Shown in pieces: positions 16-8,731 of a stretch of DNA of 64,000 nt. Positions within the stretch are counted from its first letter, which is position 1, and each line of letters begins with the position of its first letter. The position numbers and the translations under genes are program-made. The notes beneath the pieces were generated by a model. That model was given only the letters and a program-made list of their open reading frames with translations. It did no database searches and was not told the origin of the DNA. The DNA lies in NCBI GenBank assembly GCA_965237675.1, contig OZ250150.1, positions 3,456,001-3,520,000 of the forward strand, written 5' to 3'. This DNA comes from Candidatus Latescibacterota bacterium (GTDB taxonomy: Bacteria > Latescibacterota > UBA2968 > GCA-2709665).

Positions 16-1002
16 TCAGGGCAGGCGTTTGCCGAAGTTCTTTGCGAATTCCAGAAAGTCCGGAAAGTCGACCCGTCCGTTCCCATTCAGGTCGTAGATG
101 GCGTTGTCGGTGTTGAAGGCCTGGGCAAAGCCGATGAAGTCACTGAATCCGATTTCCCCGTCACCGTCGAAATCCGCCCGGGAGTCGCCATAGACAACGA
201 CGGCCGTTCCGGAGAGCGAGACGGCAATGCTGCTGTTTTCCGGGTCGTTGCTCAGAATAGTGATGGTGCCGGAGAAAGGGCCGGCCTCCACGGGGGTGAA
301 GGTGATTTCGACCTTCGCGCTGTCTCCCGCCGCAACGATTAGTTCGGTTTGACTGACGGAGACCCCGTCGAGGTCGGATTGAATGTTGGTAATGTCGAGG
401 GCGTTTTCGCCGGTATTCTTCACGACCAGGGTCAAGGTCCTGGATTCTCCCGCTGGAACGTCCTCACCAAAGTCGAGTGATGAATTGGAAATATTGATTG
501 CAGGCGGCAGGACGGTCAGCAGTTGGCGGATACGCGCGGCCGTGGCGCTAAGGCCGGATGCGGTGCGCCCCCCGATGTGGCGGACGATCCCTTCTCGGTC
601 CGCGACTAACAAAGTGTGAACACCGAGGGTGGTCTGAACGTTGCGGCCGGCCTCCAACAGCAGCGGGAATGTGATCGAGGTCGCTGCCTGAAAGCCTTGA
701 AGTTGCGACTTGTTGCCATTATATAGGTCAAGCCCCAGGACCGTTACGCCATCGTCCTGGAACGCCTTCCAGATCTCTTTTTCTATGGACGGACCCGCCG
801 CCCTGCACGTAGGTCAGTTATGGCCCAGGTAATAGAGGACCAGGACACTGCCCTTGTAATTCGCCGGGGTGTAGGTTTTTCCATCCAATCCCGTCAGCGA
901 GAAGTTGGGTACTGCATGGTCGACCTGCTGGGCTTCCGTGGGCCCCAACGGGTAGAGTCCCAGAACCAGCAGGAATACGACAAACGTAGCGATTCGACTC
1001 AT
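16..1002 (-). CDS. Exported selenocysteine-containing redoxin (AhpC/TSA/TlpA-like, U63-P-T-C66) fused to an Ig-like (ASH/choice-of-anchor D-like) domain and a C-terminal dockerin/EF-hand-like module; 328 aa
   Basis: ATG at 1002 with GGAGG RBS and signal peptide MSRIATFVVFLLVLG..TEA. In-frame TGA at 816-814 reads VLYYLGHN-U-PTC, and the frame stays open into track ORF 16..657. Redoxin motifs PNFSLTGLDGK, VTVLGLD, ITFPLL, DREGIV; C-terminal ADFDGDGEIGFSDF..YDLNGNGRVDFPDFLEFA. Confidence 0.85.
787..803 (-). promoter_or_regulatory. Putative bacterial SECIS element
   Basis: Minus strand reads UGA-CCUACGUGCA-GGGCGG-CGGGU-CCGUCC: a 6-bp stem whose G-containing loop starts after 16 nt downstream of the UGA. 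Confidence 0.65.
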
Positions 1003-1036
1003 CGCAATCCTCCATTGAGAGAGTGTGTGGCCTGCG

Positions 1037-2620
1037 TCAGAAATGGGTTTTAATTCGCATTTCAAGTCCATTGAATGGCAGCACCTGATAGCAGGTGCCC
1101 GATGTACATGCGGCGCCGCCGCGCCTGCGCCCGGCGAAAACGAGGGCTTCGTATCGTTCAAGGAAGCGGACGTTCAGATTGACCGCCAACCAGGTGCGCG
1201 TCCCGGTCTCAATCCGATCCGCCGTTGCGCCATCGTCCACTTCAAACGGATCGTTGGTGCGGTCCAGAACAAGAGCGGCACCCATGCCCGACGAATGCTG
1301 ATACGAGGCCTGGGCAAAGACATCCCGGAACGCCGGTTCGTTTTGTGGTAGCCTGGCCGCGCGCCGGACCTGCAGATTGAATCCCAGGACATCCCCGCGG
1401 GGTGTAATGGATTCGACCCCCACGCCAGCGATTCTGTGCTTCCCGATCCCCTTCAGTTCGTCTTTTCCCCAGTCGACGAACAGGTTGGTTGAGATCGCGT
1501 GGCCCCGATCTTCCGACGGGAGGTCGACGTCCACGCCTAAATACCGCTCGTTGAAGGTTTTTACGAAGCCGGGCGCCAGTTCGTTCTCTCCCGTGCTTAT
1601 GTTGGCCGTCAGCGTGCCCAGGCCGAATAGCGTATATGTGGCTTCCGCCTGATAGCCTTTTTCGGTATCGGCAAGCAGGGCGTGGGTAGATCTGTTGAGT
1701 AACACAGCCGAATGTTCACGAACCAGGGATGGGGGATCGTTGAAACTGAAGGCGAAATTCCGATAGTCTTTATATTCCACGCTCAGGCCCAGGTTTGAAA
1801 TGCCGGAGTTGGCGGAAAGATAGAGGGCGCTTCCGTCCACGTGAATGTCCTTCAGCCCGGCATATTCGGCGTAGACGGTCGCGTAGACGTCCGGCCGGCC
1901 CGATGCTTCGAATGCGGGAGTCATGTCGAGTTCCAGGAAACCGGACCATGTGCGGGTTGAGTCAAGCCTGCTGGCATGATGGCTGACGGCCGTGACACCT
2001 GTCTTGATCGGGTTGGTGGGGCGTAACGAGATCTCGCCCCCGACGAGCCAGTTGTCCCTCCGAGGTATCTCGCGCAGAGGGTCTCCCGCCCGTACCGCGG
2101 GCGGAATGTCGCCCAATACGGGACGCCCGATCAGGGCTTTGGCCTCGGCTTGCCGTCCCGACCAGGTGGCTATACCGCCCTCCAGGTCTCGCGACGGCGA
2201 ATAGCGACGCCGGTATTGAGCGCTCTCCAGTATCACCCCCGGGAGATCGAAGGCCCTGAGCGTGATTCCCCGGCCCAGTATGGCGTAGTAGTTGCCCGCG
2301 ACCAGTTCGGTGGGTCCGCGATTCCACCGCAGGTGCTTCTGTGAAATATGCACCACCTGGTAGTCAACCGTTGAAAGCTGCGAGCCCGGGGCGGGGTGCC
2401 GCCACGAATTGAAGATTTCCGCCCGGATTCCTGCCTGAAGTCCGTGCCGGTTATAATCGACATCGAACTGCTCGTAAAGTGTGGAGACCGCCAGTGAATC
2501 CCCGCCCGGTACGCGGCCGCGCTGGATTTCGGTCAGACTGAAGGCCGTGACTTGCGCGGATGACGGGGTCGCGTTGAGGAGCAAAAGGAGTGCTCCCAGG
2601 CTATTTCTCAGCGTGGGCAT
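1037..2620 (-). CDS. Putative outer-membrane beta-barrel protein (DUF6029-like) with C-terminal CxxGxC motif
   Basis: Signal peptide, alternating amphipathic strands, C-terminal Phe, VAGNYYAILGRGITLR and SVEYKDY..NDPPSL segments, tail RRGGAACTSGTCYQVLPFNG. Family name is recalled, not searched. Confidence 0.7.
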   Translation of the reverse strand: MPTLRNSLGALLLLLNATPSSAQVTAFSLTEIQRGRVPGGDSLAVSTLYEQFDVDYNRHGLQAGIRAEIFNSWRHPAPGSQLSTVDYQVVHISQKHLRWNRGPTELVAGNYYAILGRGITLRAFDLPGVILESAQYRRRYSPSRDLEGGIATWSGRQAEAKALIGRPVLGDIPPAVRAGDPLREIPRRDNWLVGGEISLRPTNPIKTGVTAVSHHASRLDSTRTWSGFLELDMTPAFEASGRPDVYATVYAEYAGLKDIHVDGSALYLSANSGISNLGLSVEYKDYRNFAFSFNDPPSLVREHSAVLLNRSTHALLADTEKGYQAEATYTLFGLGTLTANISTGENELAPGFVKTFNERYLGVDVDLPSEDRGHAISTNLFVDWGKDELKGIGKHRIAGVGVESITPRGDVLGFNLQVRRAARLPQNEPAFRDVFAQASYQHSSGMGAALVLDRTNDPFEVDDGATADRIETGTRTWLAVNLNVRFLERYEALVFAGRRRGGAACTSGTCYQVLPFNGLEMRIKTHF

Positions 2621-3137
2621 CTGCGTTTGCCTCGGCGTCTCCGGGCTTTGAAAAGAGCGACTCTACTGCGGCCAGTAACGCTTCGGCGTTTTTCGAATTG
2701 TATCCGACCTGCCGGAGCGTAATCTCGCCATTCTGCGTGATCAACAGCGTGGTTGGCAGGACATTGACTTGCATTCGCCGCATCACGCCGCTGTCGGAGT
2801 CCAGGGCGATGGGGAAGCTGACGTTTCGCGCCCGGAGAAAGGGTTTCACCCTGTTCTGGCCTCGTGGCCCGTCCACGTTGATGCCAAGTACCGTGAGTCC
2901 GGATTTTCCGTATTTCTCGTGGATCTTCTGAAGTTTGGGCATCGCCTTGACGCAGGGCTTGCAATAGGTCGCCCAGAAATCCAGAAGCACCGGTCCTTTC
3001 GTCAGAAGGGTTTTGAGGTTGACCCGTTCGCCCTGCAGGTTCCGGAGGTTGAAGTCGGGCGCGGAGGCGGCATCCGAGGATGCGACGCCGAGGACGATGG
3101 AGGCGATTGCAACGAACAATGGACGATTCGATTTCAT
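2601..3137 (-). CDS. TlpA/ResA-family thiol-disulfide oxidoreductase (exported)
   Basis: APDFNLRNLQG, LLDFWATYCKPC, cis-Pro VLPTTLLI, N-terminal signal peptide. Start trimmed to ATG 3137; stop overlaps the next gene's start by 20 nt. Confidence 0.9.
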   Translation of the reverse strand: MKSNRPLFVAIASIVLGVASSDAASAPDFNLRNLQGERVNLKTLLTKGPVLLDFWATYCKPCVKAMPKLQKIHEKYGKSGLTVLGINVDGPRGQNRVKPFLRARNVSFPIALDSDSGVMRRMQVNVLPTTLLITQNGEITLRQVGYNSKNAEALLAAVESLFSKPGDAEANADAHAEK

Positions 3138-3267
3138 CAATAGGAACTCTCCGCTGAACCGCGCCGGCCTGAGCACTGAAGGTTTTTCATGGCATAGGCG
3201 CCCGGACCTCGGTGTGGTTTCCGGCCCGGGACTCGCCATTGCGACGCATTTTGCGTCGAATCGCTTA

Positions 3268-3296
3268 ACAATAACCGAAATTCCCCGCCACATCAA
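3268..3296 (-). promoter_or_regulatory. Putative sigma70 promoter of the tlpA-barrel-selenoprotein operon
   Basis: TTGATG-17-TATTGT, followed by inverted repeat CGACGCA-N3-TGCGTCG at 3242-3258. Confidence 0.45.
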
Positions 3297-3572
3297 GCAC
3301 GATTTTTTCTGCCCGAGTGCCGCCGTACATTGAGAAGATGGGGATCACAACGCACCGGCTGCGCCGGAGCCCTGCAAGCAAGGTAACAACAGTATGGTGC
3401 GGAACTGACCGACGACCCGAAACTCTCCCACCCGGGCAGCCAGGGTCGCGCCGGCGGGAGACCGCCTGGTCAATCAGGATGGCGCGAATGGTTTGCGATC
3501 CTCTGAAAAGTCTTTGTGCAGTCCAGCCGAGTGCGAGGTGCGATGACCGCCCTTCCTTCAATCCGTTTCCGC

Positions 3573-3601
3573 TTGCAGCGCCTTTCCACTCAGCCTATAT
3601 T
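3573..3601 (+). promoter_or_regulatory. Putative sigma70 promoter for the Gfo/Idh/MocA gene
   Basis: TTGCAG-17-TATATT. Confidence 0.5.
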
Positions 3602-3614
3602 GAAAATATACATC

Positions 3615-3638
3615 CCACTTGCGGGCGCCCGCAAGTGG
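3615..3638. repeat. Perfect 24-bp palindrome
   Basis: CCACTTGCGGGCGCCCGCAAGTGG equals its own reverse complement. Confidence 0.9.
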
Positions 3639-3764
3639 CGGAAATATAATGTCATTAATGCGCCGGGGTCGCGACAAGCGCGTTATCGTGTAGTCAATGG
3701 CGAGGCCGGGCGCGAGGCCGTCCGCGTTGCGGGCGGTCGTTGAATTTCATCAGGAAGGGGCGCA

Positions 3765-4817
3765 ATGGTACAGATTGGCATTATCGGTATCGGATTTATG
3801 GGGATGACCCACTATCGAGGCGCCCGTCGGGTGAAAGGCGGGAAGGTGACGGCCATCTGCACGCGGGACGAAAAAAAGTTAAAGGGGGATTGGCGGGGGA
3901 TTCACGGGAATTTCGGGGACCCCGGAGGCATTGAAGATTTGTCCGGGATCCGGACGTACCGGAAGATCGAAGATCTGTTGGCGGATCCGGAAATCGATCT
4001 TGTGAACATCTGCCTGCCCTCGGCGATGCATAGGGACGTGACGATAGCGGCGTTGCGGGCGGGAAAGCACGTGCTGCTTGAAAAACCGATCGCGTTGAAC
4101 CCGAAAGACGCCAACCGGATGGTTCAAGAGGCAAGCAAGACGCGGCGCTCGCTGATGGTGGCGCAGGTGCTGCCGTTTTTTCCGGAATTCGCCTATGCCC
4201 GAAGGGTCGTGGAGGAGGGGAAGTACGGCGAGCTTCTGGGCGCGCACTTCAAGCGGATTATTTCGCAGCCCGACTGGTCTTCCGAATTTGGAGACGTCGA
4301 ACGAAGCGGCGGACCGGGTGTTGACCTGCACATCCACGATACCCACTACATTCTTCTGCTGTGCGGCGTCCCCGACCAGGTATCTTCAACCGGCCGCCTC
4401 GTTAACGATCGTTACGCCGAGTATCTGTGTACGAGCTACAGGTACCACGACCGACCGGGTCTGAGCATCACCTGCGCTTCCGGGGCGATTTCGCAGCCCG
4501 GCCGCGCGTTTGCCCACGGATTCGAGATCTACCTCGAGCAGGCAACGCTGATTTACGAATTTGCCACGTTGGGCGATAAGCCGGTTCTGTCCATGCCTCT
4601 CACGCTACTTACGGACGACAAGAAAGTCCGAAAACCCAGATTGGGCTCGGGCGATCCGGTAGTCGCGTTTACTCGTGAGATTCAGGCTGCGGTCGATGAA
4701 GTGGCGAGCGGGGTTCCCGCCGAGGCACTGTCCGGGGTTCGGGCGGCGGACGCCCTCCGGCTCTGTTTCAAGGAGGTCGAGTCCGTGCGTCGCGGGCGGG
4801 CGGTGCGGGTAAAATAG
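3765..4817 (+). CDS. Gfo/Idh/MocA-family NAD(P)-dependent oxidoreductase
   Basis: IGIIGIGFMG Rossmann motif, AGKHVLLEKP, GGPGVDLHIHD. Confidence 0.92.
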   Translation: MVQIGIIGIGFMGMTHYRGARRVKGGKVTAICTRDEKKLKGDWRGIHGNFGDPGGIEDLSGIRTYRKIEDLLADPEIDLVNICLPSAMHRDVTIAALRAGKHVLLEKPIALNPKDANRMVQEASKTRRSLMVAQVLPFFPEFAYARRVVEEGKYGELLGAHFKRIISQPDWSSEFGDVERSGGPGVDLHIHDTHYILLLCGVPDQVSSTGRLVNDRYAEYLCTSYRYHDRPGLSITCASGAISQPGRAFAHGFEIYLEQATLIYEFATLGDKPVLSMPLTLLTDDKKVRKPRLGSGDPVVAFTREIQAAVDEVASGVPAEALSGVRAADALRLCFKEVESVRRGRAVRVK

Positions 4818-5014
4818 GGAATGGGCGAGGATAGGGAGGAAAGCGCTGGGCGGACGAGCGGTCACGGGTGTGAGACAGATTCGGAGCGTGACGTATCGGG
4901 ATACATCGCCTGCTTGTTTTCGAAGGGCATACTACGGCGGATTCCGATGTCGCATCTTCGGGTTTGCTCGGAGCCCGGACCGGGCAGAAATCGCCGCGTT
5001 CCCGCTTACCGGCG

Positions 5015-6472
5015 TTAATTTCTCACCGCGATATCAACCGGTTTGCCCTGGGCGAACTCCGCTTCGACATTGCTCAGGCCGAAAAGGGTCGCGGAAAGGT
5101 CTCGGAGGGAGAGGGGTTCGGTAACGCGCAGACCCGCCGGCAGGCGGGGACCGATGAGAAGCGCGCGGTTGCCTGCCACATCCAGTAAGGCCAGGGTCGT
5201 CCGGTTCTGATAGCGGTGATGCTCCAGTACGACTTTCCGGATCTGTTCGATCGTATTGCGGCTGTCGGATCCGCCGGACAATTGAAAAAGCATCAGATCG
5301 GGTTGCGCCCTGGGAAGACAGGCAAGGACAAGCGAACTCACGAAGGCGTTCTTGAGTTCCAGGTTCTGATCGGAAGAAACGAGGGTCCTGACGACGAGCC
5401 GCGCCAGGACTTTGTTTTTGACGATTTTGTTGATTTTAAGTTTTTTCGGGGTGAGCGTCGGGTAGACAACATTGTCGATAAATGCCTGTGACCTGCCCTC
5501 CGACCTGGCTTCGTCCAGTGCAAGGCGGATTTTTTCCGCCGCCTGGTCTAAAGCGGAAGCCCGCACCGAGAGACACCCGAATTTCTTGTATTTCTTGTGT
5601 TTGCTGCGGTCCGGCGGGGCGCGATCGTCGAGATAGAAAGCCAGTGTGCGGGTACGGGTTTTGTCGTTAAGGGCGCGATTGTGATATTCGAAAAGGGTCG
5701 GGTGTGCGAGTTTGTCTCCCTTCAGCGCGTCGTCGCGGCCGGTCAGCAGGGTGGCCAGCCATCGTTCTGGCGGATTCGAAAAGGGCACGGTCTCCAGAAG
5801 GGTTCCCTGCGCGAGCAGGCTCTCGTCCAGCGTTGAATCGGATGATCCGGATTGCGCATGCATGATTGCGATTGCGAGTAGCGCCGGGGGGAAGTCCGCA
5901 CCCTCATAGACAAACCGATTGAACGCGGTTTCGATTCTTGCCCTCTGTTCCGGCATAATTTGCACATCAGGATTTCGCGGCCGCCTCTGAGCCGGCTCCC
6001 CGCGTTGCCCGGTTCCACGTCGCCGGCCAGGACCCTGTCGCAGTCCAGGTTCCCGACGTTGTCCAGGGCCCCTTCGCGTCCCGAAGATGCCTGCGATCGC
6101 CTCGCCGAAAGCCGCGCGCAGATCCCCATTCGACGCTTCCCTGGCCTTTATGAAAAAGTGTCTGAATCGCTCCCGCTCCTGCGGGAAGAAGTCATCCCAG
6201 TGTGTCAAAGAGTTAAGTATATAAGTCCTTATCGGGAGGGGAAGCCGGCGAAACGTCTCCTCGTTCCCCTTGACCAGGTCGTAGGCGCCAGTGGGGAGGT
6301 TGGAGAACTGGTCTCTTTGAAGTGGACTGAGATCAACGCCCCCGCCGCCTCTTCGACCTCTTCCGCCTCCGCCCCTTCGTTGCGCAAGCGTGTCCTCACA
6401 GGCAAGCAATAGGACAAGAAGGGTTGCCACGAGCGATATTATTCCTTGAGATGGTCTGGGGTAAACGGTCAT
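5015..6472 (-). CDS. Exported hypothetical protein with R/G-rich linkers and a degenerate alkaline-phosphatase/sulfatase-like C-terminus
   Basis: 485-aa ORF with GGAGG RBS and hydrophobic signal ending LLAC. C-terminal LLIGPRLPAG..LRDLSATLFGL..QGKPV resembles AlkP-superfamily ends. Confidence 0.6.
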   Translation of the reverse strand: MTVYPRPSQGIISLVATLLVLLLACEDTLAQRRGGGGRGRRGGGGVDLSPLQRDQFSNLPTGAYDLVKGNEETFRRLPLPIRTYILNSLTHWDDFFPQERERFRHFFIKAREASNGDLRAAFGEAIAGIFGTRRGPGQRREPGLRQGPGRRRGTGQRGEPAQRRPRNPDVQIMPEQRARIETAFNRFVYEGADFPPALLAIAIMHAQSGSSDSTLDESLLAQGTLLETVPFSNPPERWLATLLTGRDDALKGDKLAHPTLFEYHNRALNDKTRTRTLAFYLDDRAPPDRSKHKKYKKFGCLSVRASALDQAAEKIRLALDEARSEGRSQAFIDNVVYPTLTPKKLKINKIVKNKVLARLVVRTLVSSDQNLELKNAFVSSLVLACLPRAQPDLMLFQLSGGSDSRNTIEQIRKVVLEHHRYQNRTTLALLDVAGNRALLIGPRLPAGLRVTEPLSLRDLSATLFGLSNVEAEFAQGKPVDIAVRN

Positions 6473-6643
6473 TTTTCGCCTCCCCGAGCGAAGGTCAAGG
6501 AATTACGTACATGGTTTGGTTGCGGACTCTGCTTCGCGGCCGATTTTGTCAGCCGTAGACGATCGATTCCGCTGCTTTTGTCGCCCGCCGCGCCGTCGTG
6601 AACGAGGGCAGGACCGTCGCGCGAAACCGGGCGGGACGGTCGT

Positions 6644-7420
6644 TTAAAGGTGTTCTCGAAGCCAATATAGGATTTCGGCGCGGGCCGCCGGGTTGTTCAG
6701 GAGAGCCGGACCGTTGGCTGTGCCCTGGTATCCGCTGACCCGAACCGGCTCCCCGGTACGCTGTGCCAGGATTTCGGAAGAGGTATACGCGTACCCGTCG
6801 CCGTGGGCCGCCATGAACAGGATCGAGCGCGGCCGAAAGTTCGGGACACTGTTGCCGAGCAGGATATCCTGACTGAGCCGGGTGATGAGGGATATGACGA
6901 CCGACGTCCTGACGTCCGGATAGATGCCGGAACTGACGTAAGCAATGTTGGCGCCAAGCGCCGCGCCCACGAGTCCGATACGCCCTGCGTCGACGTCGGG
7001 ACGTTTCTTGAGCCAGCCGAGCGCACCCTCGATATCCAGGGGCATTTTGTTGATATCTTCCGTCTGGAAGGTGCTGCGCGGAAAATAGACGTCGTTCCGG
7101 AAGGTGCTCCCTCCATGTCCTCGAATGTCGTAGGCAAGCACATGGTATCCCTCGTTGGTCAGTTCCGGCACGAAGGGAATCCAGATATCGAGGTTCTGGT
7201 CGAAGGGGTGGATGAGGACAACAGCGGGCCGCCGCCCCGTCTGGCGGTTGGAGGTAAACCAGGCTGCAAGAATGCGAAAGCCGTCGGGAGTCGTAAATGA
7301 GACCGCCTCGCCCGTAACCATCTCCGGCGGCGTCGTTGGCTCGCCGTCGGTTGGCTGTCTGCCGCAATCCGTCGAAAGTAGGGCGAACGCTATGAGAGCG
7401 AGATATTTGCAAGGTGCCAT
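6644..7420 (-). CDS. Alpha/beta-hydrolase-fold lipoprotein, apparently lacking the catalytic Ser and His
   Basis: Lipoprotein-like signal, PAVVLIHP, LAYDIRGHGGS, RIGLVGAALGAN (GxSxG site reads GAALG), GTANG in place of GxxHG. Confidence 0.8.
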   Translation of the reverse strand: MAPCKYLALIAFALLSTDCGRQPTDGEPTTPPEMVTGEAVSFTTPDGFRILAAWFTSNRQTGRRPAVVLIHPFDQNLDIWIPFVPELTNEGYHVLAYDIRGHGGSTFRNDVYFPRSTFQTEDINKMPLDIEGALGWLKKRPDVDAGRIGLVGAALGANIAYVSSGIYPDVRTSVVISLITRLSQDILLGNSVPNFRPRSILFMAAHGDGYAYTSSEILAQRTGEPVRVSGYQGTANGPALLNNPAARAEILYWLREHL

Positions 7421-7909
7421 GCGCCGTTGTAGCCGGTAAGGTTTATGGAAACATGATTATTGTCGCTCGACGTCTAAATTAACGACATCAGGCCTCCAAA
7501 GACAAGCGCGTATTGAACGCCGCTACCGATCGTTGCGCGTACCCGGTGAAATTTTAGCGAGTCCTGGATTGCGAAACCGGCAAACACGACCTGCTACTTC
7601 TGTATCGGCCAACGCCAGGCCGGCGGTATAACCCGTTACCGCGTGAAGGCGTCGTGACCCGTACCGGGTCAAACGGAACAGGGTCCGCTACCCCTTTTGG
7701 GCCGCAGGGCCGGCACGAAGCCGTACAACAAATGGCAACGGGGCGGACGGGATGGCAGCACGGAATTGGAGACATCCACGGACAGGGCATTAGCGGTTGC
7801 CATGTCGATTCTTAGACCATAAATTACCGAAATTCGTTCCGGAAAGCGCGTGTGTGCACGAGACGCCGGCCGGTTTCTTTCCATTCGATCTGCTTGAAGG
7901 AGATTCTCA

Positions 7910-8731
7910 ATGTTTCGGATTACCCTGTGTTGGATGGCGGCGGTAGCACTCATCGTTCCGGCCGTTGTCGCGGACGGGTACGATCAACGACCTATCGAGA
8001 CCCCCGGCATCTCCCCTCGCGCCGCCGGCGCAGGTCGGAAGGCGGGCCCTTCGAAGGTGCGCAACCGGGCGGGGATGGAATTCGTGTTGATTCCAGCGGG
8101 TAAATTTCGCATGGGATCGGCGAGCGACGAGGCCGGAGACCAGGAAAAGCCGGTAACGGAGGTGACGATTGGGCAGGCATTCTACATGGGAAAGCACGAG
8201 GTTACCCAAAAGCAATGGGAAAAGTTAATGGGGAACAGACCTTCGGACTTCAAGAGATGCAATGACTGTCCAGTGGAACATATTTCATGGAACGACGCGC
8301 AGGCGTTTGTCCGCGCGCTCAACGACATGGAGGATTCGAAGCGGTATCGATTGCCCACCGAGGCCGAGTGGGAGTACGCCGCTCGCGGAGGGACGGCTGG
8401 GGACCGATACGGTGCCAACCTGGATGCAATCGCATGGTATGACAAGAATTGCGACGAACGTCCGCACCCGGTCGGGAAGAAAAAGCCGAACGGATTCGGA
8501 CTGTACGACATGCTTGGAAATGTCTACGAATGGGTCCAGGACTGGAAGGGCACGTACCCTGGCGGAGAAGTGACAGATCCGCGGGGCCCCGCCCGGGGAA
8601 AGTTCCGGATGATGCGGGGCGGAAGCTGGGAGAACGGCGCACAGAGTTGCCGGGCTACGCACCGCCTCGACGCGTCGCCCGGTTTCCGGATCCACGTTCT
8701 GGGCTTGCGGGTACTGATGGAAGCCCGTTAA
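7910..8731 (+). CDS. Formylglycine-generating enzyme (FGE-sulfatase/SUMF1) domain protein, exported
   Basis: AAGGAG RBS, signal peptide, FVLIPAGKFRMGS, RLPTEAEWEYAARGG, NGFGLYDMLGNVYEW, RGGSW. Confidence 0.92.
   Translation: MFRITLCWMAAVALIVPAVVADGYDQRPIETPGISPRAAGAGRKAGPSKVRNRAGMEFVLIPAGKFRMGSASDEAGDQEKPVTEVTIGQAFYMGKHEVTQKQWEKLMGNRPSDFKRCNDCPVEHISWNDAQAFVRALNDMEDSKRYRLPTEAEWEYAARGGTAGDRYGANLDAIAWYDKNCDERPHPVGKKKPNGFGLYDMLGNVYEWVQDWKGTYPGGEVTDPRGPARGKFRMMRGGSWENGAQSCRATHRLDASPGFRIHVLGLRVLMEAR

Follow-up and report, generated by a model that had tools for sequence, protein, structure and literature searches.

Reducing pathways of the bacterial envelope that run from DsbD or CcdA to TlpA, ResA or CcmG end in the periplasm, where they serve cytochrome c, Sco/CoxB and Msr, and to our knowledge the same holds for all described reducing pathways. 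The reduction of thiol enzymes that lie beyond the Gram-negative outer membrane lacks an explanation. Two outer-membrane assemblies offer relevant plans. In LptD-LptE a small protein of its own occupies the lumen of a large barrel, and cysteines of the barrel are functionally important; in MtrCAB a periplasmic redox protein is sheathed by a barrel, and electrons pass from it to a redox protein at the surface. Here we analyse three tightly packed genes, all on the minus strand, at the start of a 64,000-nucleotide (nt) stretch of DNA from a Candidatus Latescibacterota bacterium (contig OZ250150.1, positions 3,456,001 to 3,520,000; the whole stretch is called the window below). They encode a TlpA-like reductase, a DUF6029 outer-membrane β-barrel and a selenoprotein.

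The trio is almost certainly a conserved functional module that contains a true selenoprotein. As to what the module does, we lean, with slightly less than an even chance of being right, towards a pathway that would carry reducing power to the cell surface, in which a reductase-plugged barrel would feed a surface selenol/thiol oxidoreductase. It may show how thiol enzymes are reduced beyond the outer membrane. Literature searches returned no description of a module made up of TlpA, DUF6029 and an exported redoxin.

Organisation, conservation and selenocysteine decoding

The close coupling of the three genes is exactly as a preliminary description of this DNA gave it: the TlpA-like gene and the barrel gene overlap by 20 nt (2601–2620), and 34 nt (1003–1036) separate the barrel gene from the third gene. 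Shine-Dalgarno-like GGAG/GAGG stretches lie upstream of all three ATG codons. Each product begins, judged by eye, with a hydrophobic N-terminus like that of a signal peptide, in agreement with the signal peptides claimed for all three proteins, and the redox-type pair that had been attributed to each was found in every case, as WATYCKPC in the TlpA-like protein, CTSGTC at the C-terminus of the barrel and UPTC in the third protein. A promoter and terminator scan gave nothing above shuffled sequences, and as to expression, none of 21 runs was listed as an RNA holder.

Gene neighbourhoods of barrel homologues, an analysis that the preliminary description had proposed, were compared at 105 loci. 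These comprise 75 distinct loci, derived from 296 confirmed barrel relatives in species-representative genomes, of which the best 80 were used, and 30 loci fetched from a second phylum, which was reached through a 'Cytophagia' metagenome-assembled genome (MAG). Some genomes recur among the loci (L112 is the same as L083 and L121 the same as L063, and L116 resembles L085). The genome behind L116 (G161) is unpublished; no conclusion here depends on that locus, and without it each count drops by one. The pairs L057/L058 and L065/L066 each stem from a single genome in which the whole module is duplicated; in L057/L058 the redoxin frame breaks after ∼126 residues, and the tblastn match goes on in another frame.

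With W[AT][TL][WY]CxPC as the motif sought beside the barrel, a TlpA gene was found at 75/75 of the nearest-relative loci and at 26/30 of those from the second phylum, making 101/105 loci from at least two phyla. It is on the same strand as the barrel gene or divergent from it, and lies no more than 700 nt away in 100/105. Two of the four loci without it (L108 and L117) are cut by contig ends, and the other two (L115 and L119) have none within 1.5 kb. The CxxGxC motif of the barrel was found in 102/105 loci, and the window's own genome has a single barrel copy. To judge by the TlpA-barrel pairing (101/105), by CxxGxC (102/105) and by the alignment of TGA with Cys codons described below, the arrangement of the trio is far beyond chance, and the reading of the three genes as an envelope redox module that is conserved finds support.

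Relatives at 78–85% identity are found in Candidatus Latescibacterota records and in a few of Gemmatimonadota, and the module as a whole occurs in Latescibacterota and in the phylum to which the 'Cytophagia' MAG belongs, as well as in records of Balneolales and Neomarinimicrobiota. DUF6029 occurs in 39/167 sampled genomes of the second phylum (34 above cut-off) and in 0/14 control genomes. Clusters of TlpA, DUF6029 and an Omp28-like protein, which the preliminary description had mentioned, do exist in loci of another phylum. The C-x residue of TlpA (Lys versus hydrophobic) and that of the barrel (Thr versus hydrophobic) sort together in 88/92 pairs; the tree shows only two changes for each state (sign test p = 1), and for this reason the co-variation is no independent evidence.

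The third gene (16–1002, minus strand; 328 residues plus stop) is open only with readthrough of an in-frame TGA at 814–816 (minus strand), which is predicted to be read as selenocysteine in LGHN-U-PTC, and the redoxin domain match runs across this codon. Among 65 homologous redoxin open reading frames (ORFs) from 56 loci, the codon aligned to it is TGA in 55 and TGT or TGC in ten, one of the ten Cys-codon ORFs (L100) being more TlpA-like, and no other stop codon is found at the position. Downstream, a hairpin resembling a selenocysteine insertion sequence (SECIS), GGGCGG-CGGGU-CCGUCC (787–803, minus strand; −9.3 kcal/mol), opens 14 nt past the U of the UGA. When sequences are folded one by one, a hairpin follows the UGA in 43/43 distinct TGA sequences, opening 11–18 nt (mostly 14–17 nt) after the U, with a stem of 4–11 bp (mostly 5–7 bp) and a short loop that usually contains G. 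The stems are clade-specific (GGACG/CGUCC, UCGCGG/CCGCGA, CUCUCG/CGAGAG and GAGCGGC/GCCGCUC), and the mean hairpin energy is −8.9 kcal/mol in the TGA forms against −5.4 kcal/mol in nine Cys forms.

The genome also carries the selenocysteine machinery, with matches for selA (561 bits), selB (358 bits), selD (363 bits) and tRNA-Sec (73.3 bits), of which tRNA-Sec, selB and selA stand side by side. From the TGA/Cys alignment in 65 ORFs, the hairpin in all 43 sequences and the Sec genes of the genome we conclude that the third gene almost certainly encodes a true selenoprotein, as had been proposed from the window. The selD gene (G000:C1:309559-310482) itself has one in-frame TGA, and its product is probably a selenoprotein too. 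In sister genomes a second, tandem selenoprotein copy with GHN-U-[DN]LC and a hairpin of its own is present at L021, L024, L028 and L054 (∼7600–8630), and L053 has three selenoprotein copies, one of them a Cys form.

The reductase, the barrel and their predicted complex

The first gene (2601–3137, minus strand) encodes a putative periplasmic thiol-disulfide reductase of the TlpA/ResA family with 178 residues (P0003), a member of a barrel-associated subfamily with a DGPR motif; this motif is found in only one of the seven TlpA-like paralogues of the genome, that of the trio. The codons of the active site, W55-A-T-Y-C59-K-P-C62, lie at 2952–2975 (minus strand). The protein scores 84.6 bits with AhpC-TSA (PF00578; cut-off 26), and 73.3 bits with Redoxin (PF08534) and 50.8 bits with Thioredoxin_8 (PF13905), both likewise above cut-off. 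The NCBIfam models ResA (104.9 bits; cut-off 170) and TlpA (54.0 bits) match under their equivalog or subfamily cut-offs. Its closest sequence matches are ResA and TlpA, and the best solved match of the TlpA profile is PDB 2m72. Across 38 TlpA sequences F54, W55, C59, P61, C62 and P128 are invariant, and by its position P128 would be the cis-Pro of TlpA. A DsbD_TM gene is present elsewhere in the genome.

The second gene (1037–2620, minus strand) encodes the barrel, a protein of 527 residues (P0002) ending in ...GGAACTSGTCYQVLPFNGLEMRIKTHF. It matches DUF6029 (PF19494) at 51.4 bits (cut-off 27), the best stretch being residues 53–124 only, and PF19494 is a precomputed assignment for 62/62 of the barrel homologues found. 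The structural model (pLDDT 86.2, pTM 0.81) has, by our own count, ∼24 strands; the turns on one side are short, and the opposite side carries long loops (116–145, 168–190, 288–319 and 456–474). The top Foldseek matches are the 24-strand usher pores PapC and FimD, at TM-scores (TMq) of 0.46–0.50 and 7–10% identity; OprD and BtuB follow, and all of these barrels are matched by size only.

The most conserved stretches of the barrel are FDLPGVILE and NDPPSLVREH..LLNR.TH, in two of the long loops, and the motif GxRRGGxAC-x2-G-x-CY..F.G at the C-terminus. In this motif an alignment of 32 barrels shows C505, G508, C510 and F516 to be invariant. The codons of the CxxGxC motif, C505-T-S-G-T-C510, lie at 1091–1108 (minus strand) in the turn of the last hairpin. 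As modelled, the two cysteines border a two-residue turn that joins the last two strand segments, and the pair is a disulfide-capable hairpin; the complex prediction given next further suggests that residues 500–515 are a hairpin loop that reaches into the lumen and bears the Cys pair at the tip.

A complex of barrel residues 22–527 with TlpA residues 24–166 was predicted from our own alignments, which were unpaired. The ipSAE values are 0.87, 0.82 and 0.87, and all three controls gave 0.00; the calibration of the ipSAE mark (reached by 58/80 solved complexes and 2/110 mismatched pairs) is approximate here owing to the use of own alignments. There are 160–171 contacts, with a partner pLDDT of 85–86, and the runs agree in at least 90% of them. 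On the barrel side the residues touching TlpA comprise every periplasmic turn around the barrel, 112–128 (with the conserved FDLPG), 295–304 (NDPPSLVREH) and 506–508; on the TlpA side they are 56–60 (with C59), 88–96 (DGPR) and 114–126, just ahead of the conserved proline.

Because these contacts ring the whole barrel, the prediction sets TlpA as a plug within the lumen. In both proteins the motifs that are invariant and specific to the family fall in the predicted interface, a position that would explain why they are conserved. We consider it probable, from this prediction, that TlpA does bind in the barrel. The preliminary description had asked where the CxxGxC loop stands relative to TlpA, and the prediction has TlpA within the barrel and in contact with the Cys hairpin at its tip.

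The putative exported partner and the proposed pathway

The selenoprotein consists of a signal peptide, a ResA-like UxxC redoxin, an Ig-like domain and a dockerin-like tail, the three domains all being given here in minus-strand coordinates. The redoxin domain (577–924), of the AhpC/TSA-type thioredoxin fold, matches PF00578 at 58.2 bits (cut-off 26) and PF08534 at 43.0 bits (cut-off 26.6). The Ig-like domain (208–504), of the 'choice-of-anchor D' or HYDIN-VesB-like kind, matches NF012200 at 51.1 bits (cut-off 45), PF22544 at 51.3 (cut-off 25.5) and DUF1573 at 47.9 (cut-off 26.1). The tail (31–177) is a dockerin-like double EF-hand, DFDGDGEIGFSDF ... DLNGNGRVDFPDF, with 28.6 bits for EF-hand_1 (cut-off 25.4); it holds two repeats of D-x-[DN]-G-[DN]-G-x-[IV]-[GD]-F, dockerin-like by eye. 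[quoted passage not shown] Matches resembling the tail (residues ∼270–328) are found in dozens of ORFs per genome in G170–G174, and anchoring tails of this dockerin-like type are therefore very common in these Latescibacterota.

The solved structures closest to the selenoprotein are 2ls5, 3kcm and ResA (4nmu), which makes it ResA-like, and it is the sole redoxin of its type in the genome. Two other identities were rejected. The clusters named in the preliminary description hold an Omp28-like protein; the third gene here is without a match to Omp28 models at E ≤ 0.1, and its family matches make it a ResA/TlpA-like redoxin. The peroxidatic signature of peroxiredoxins is PxxxTxxC/U according to the available part of PMC13188914; it is absent here, with YYLGHNUPTC in its place, and the solved relatives being ResA-like also speaks against a peroxiredoxin.

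The 65 U/CxxC redoxin ORFs are spread over 56/105 loci. Their C-termini bear either the dockerin-like repeat, in the window's clade and its neighbours, or a T9SS sorting domain. TIGR04183 is above cut-off in 12/12 ORFs with T9SS-like C-termini (16 scanned), and also at L092 (a Balneolales record), L109, L112, L114, L116, L117, L118 and L120. At other second-phylum barrels, Omp28-family lipoproteins or matches to 'Omp28-related selenoprotein', all of them under the cut-offs of these models, or other T9SS cargo stand in third place. From these features the third partner is built for export, by a dockerin-like tail, a T9SS sorting domain or an Omp28-type lipoprotein form, and the claim that it is suited to the cell surface thus finds its counterpart in the relatives. 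The window's own genome has cohesin-domain ORFs and an SprA homologue.

Five genomes that lack the third gene at the barrel locus were checked, and all five have a TGA-containing homologue elsewhere; they belong to a Latescibacterota clade with the order TlpA-barrel-tilS-ftsH. In the window's own genome the selenoprotein gene sits between the barrel and tilS/ftsH. Since the barrel of the sister clade directly precedes tilS/ftsH, the selenoprotein gene was gained or lost between barrel and tilS. The tilS-like gene (GVSGGPDS) and the ftsH-like gene lie just beyond the start of the window, downstream of the selenoprotein (L141; G000:C1:3450001-3456100).

In the pathway that we propose, TlpA, a CxxC protein soluble in the periplasm, would presumably be charged by the DsbD-type membrane protein of the genome and would dock as a plug in the lumen of the ∼24-stranded barrel. 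Its active-site face would point inward, meeting those conserved loops that fold inward and, at its tip, the invariant C505-x4-C510 hairpin, and reducing equivalents would move on by thiol-disulfide exchange at the barrel Cys pair. The recipient would be the exported ResA-like oxidoreductase, with the selenocysteine of UPTC as the attacking residue; this enzyme would be displayed outside by means of its Ig-like spacer and dockerin-like tail, and would act on an extracellular or surface disulfide. We infer that the barrel Cys pair is redox-active, and likewise which way electrons flow, how TlpA is recycled, the route of the selenoprotein through the outer membrane, its surface location here and its substrate. 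A full relay across the outer membrane is possible, with the balance leaning somewhat against it; if true, it would rank as the first non-haem conduit for electrons across this membrane, and a widespread one.

Several points weigh against this pathway. The complex is a prediction from unpaired own alignments, and of the Cys hairpin only residues 506–508 are listed as touching TlpA. The strand and loop count puts that hairpin on the extracellular side, and it could be a structural staple. A TlpA that was stably lodged in the barrel could not recharge at the inner membrane, so that cycling would be needed. No recognised signal for export through the outer membrane is present in the window's selenoprotein, with no T9SS match and sub-threshold dockerin scores, and 49/105 loci are without a second redoxin by tblastn (E ≤ 1e-3), family scans having found one at L092 and L117. 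As to the recoding signal, hairpin energies are modestly better than those of shuffled sequences (mean z −0.94), and the 73-nt piece of the window reaches z −0.39, so that single-sequence folding alone is no evidence. RNAalifold found no consensus in the 43 ungapped sequences downstream of the UGA, because the hairpins occur in three or four registers.

The position of the Cys pair at a tight hairpin turn, like that of a staple, would suit a different explanation, a redox-gated or redox-assembled channel in which TlpA serves the barrel only, through upkeep or isomerisation of C505-C510 during assembly or, as a removable plug, through opening and closing of the pore, and the redoxin is merely co-regulated. 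LptE and Dsb proteins act on the cysteines of LptD during assembly, and in the present loci the universal pair is TlpA and the barrel (101/105), with the third gene missing at many of them and TlpA predicted to fill the lumen. However, where the third gene is present its product has a thioredoxin fold with U/CxxC and bears an export tail, and genomes without it in cis have a homologue elsewhere (5/5); moreover, it would be unusual for a single structural disulfide to have a reductase of its own. We regard such a channel as unlikely, though it deserves to be kept in view.

The usher-like dimensions of the barrel raise the idea that it is a translocon or anchor, exporting or holding the redoxin or TlpA, with the Cys pair tethering the cargo by a disulfide. 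PapC and FimD are its best structural matches, and the window's selenoprotein lacks a known outer-membrane export signal. Yet TM-scores of ∼0.5 mirror the size of the barrel and not homology, given 7–10% identity, and most of the homologous redoxins have a T9SS sorting domain, hence a secretion route of their own, an SprA homologue being present in the genome here. A role of this kind seems improbable.

A periplasmic function in detoxification or uptake would have TlpA reduce a peroxidase-like or disulfide-reducing selenoprotein within the periplasm, with the barrel as a porin for the substrate. Both redoxins do match the AhpC/TSA family, and there are weak, sub-threshold matches to thiol peroxidases; but LGHNUPTC stands where PxxxTxxC/U would be needed, the solved relatives are ResA-like, tails of the T9SS, dockerin and lipoprotein kinds point to the outside, and TlpA is predicted to be inside the barrel and not beside it. 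We think this quite improbable. Least likely by far is a polysaccharide-export porin, suggested by the likeness of DUF6029 to the Wzi barrel by HHpred and the speculation on polysaccharide export in PMC9603273, and not supported by the neighbourhood, in which the invariant neighbour is a thiol reductase and not an OPX or polysaccharide gene, with tilS and ftsH downstream and a Gfo/Idh/MocA-like oxidoreductase gene upstream in the window.

This oxidoreductase gene (3765–4817, plus strand; 350 residues, MVQIGIIGIGFMGMTHYRG...; family by eye) is divergent from that of TlpA. A near-identical N-terminus adjoins the module at L034, L035 and L036, which makes the gene a syntenic neighbour. Further on, a 485-residue ORF (5015–6472, minus strand) has a stretch rich in Gly and Arg, RRGGGGRGRRGGGG, and a start that looks signal-like, and L035 codes at 1526–3136 for a similar protein (QRGGGGRGGGRGGGG...). 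At L092, the Balneolales record, the module is flanked (2514–7928) by a gene for a CcdA/DsbD-like membrane protein, a gene pair resembling ECF sigma and anti-sigma factors, and an MsrA-like gene (GCFWC), each assigned by eye from the translated ORFs; this context hints at the repair of oxidised envelope proteins.

Comparison with known systems

Among solved structures, the PapC and FimD ushers are nearest to the DUF6029 barrel in size and head its Foldseek matches (TMq 0.46–0.50). They differ from it in having a plug, periplasmic domains, and chaperone and pilin genes, which the DUF6029 barrel is without, and identity is 7–10%. For the thioredoxin-type protein HBP35 we know of no reductase-barrel partner. 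By description it resembles the third protein of the trio in being a surface-exported enzyme of thioredoxin type, a T9SS cargo with thioredoxin activity in Porphyromonas gingivalis (Shoji 2010) according to PMC13744359.

Two selenoprotein families catalogued in PMC13188914, as far as its available part goes, gain a cellular context from the trio. One is the 'Prx-like thiol:disulfide oxidoreductase' family (PF00578, UxxC), 'predicted with high confidence' there, into which the window's selenoprotein fits as a PF00578 protein with UxxC and with Sec and Cys homologues; the window member differs in being fused to Ig-like and dockerin-like parts and in belonging to a TlpA-barrel module. The other is the 'Omp28-related selenoprotein' NF045500, named GOS_C in the same part of that source. 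It has Sec and Cys forms, and Omp28 lipoproteins or matches to this model stand third beside TlpA and DUF6029 at L102–L107, L111, L115, L094 and L095; the third protein of the window is ResA-like and gives no match to either at E ≤ 0.1. A table in the same source also names an 'MtrB/PioB family'.

The trio would also give a function to DUF6029, a domain found in 39/167 sampled genomes of another phylum. It offers three concrete parts, namely a reductase subfamily, a Cys-hairpin barrel and an exported U/CxxC enzyme, together with a predicted architecture. The broadest proposal that we would draw from these, and a tentative one more likely to fail than to hold, is that the DUF6029 barrel with its TlpA plug may be the outer-membrane counterpart of DsbD, feeding surface Sec/Cys oxidoreductases through the invariant Cys pair.

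The pathways from DsbD or CcdA to TlpA, ResA and CcmG share with this locus a WCxxC thioredoxin-fold reductase with a signal peptide, and a DsbD-type protein is encoded in the genome. They differ in that here the reductase, with its DGPR motif, is tied to a barrel and to an exported U/CxxC partner. LptD-LptE has the same plug-and-barrel plan with cysteines in the barrel, the plug being at this locus a predicted one; in contrast to the lipoprotein LptE, it would be a soluble thioredoxin-fold reductase, and there is neither a sequence relation nor a link to lipopolysaccharide. With MtrCAB the likeness is one of logic, in that a sheathed periplasmic redox protein would feed a partner at the surface. 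The families are unrelated, and where MtrCAB uses chains of haems, the trio would use thiol/selenol exchange.

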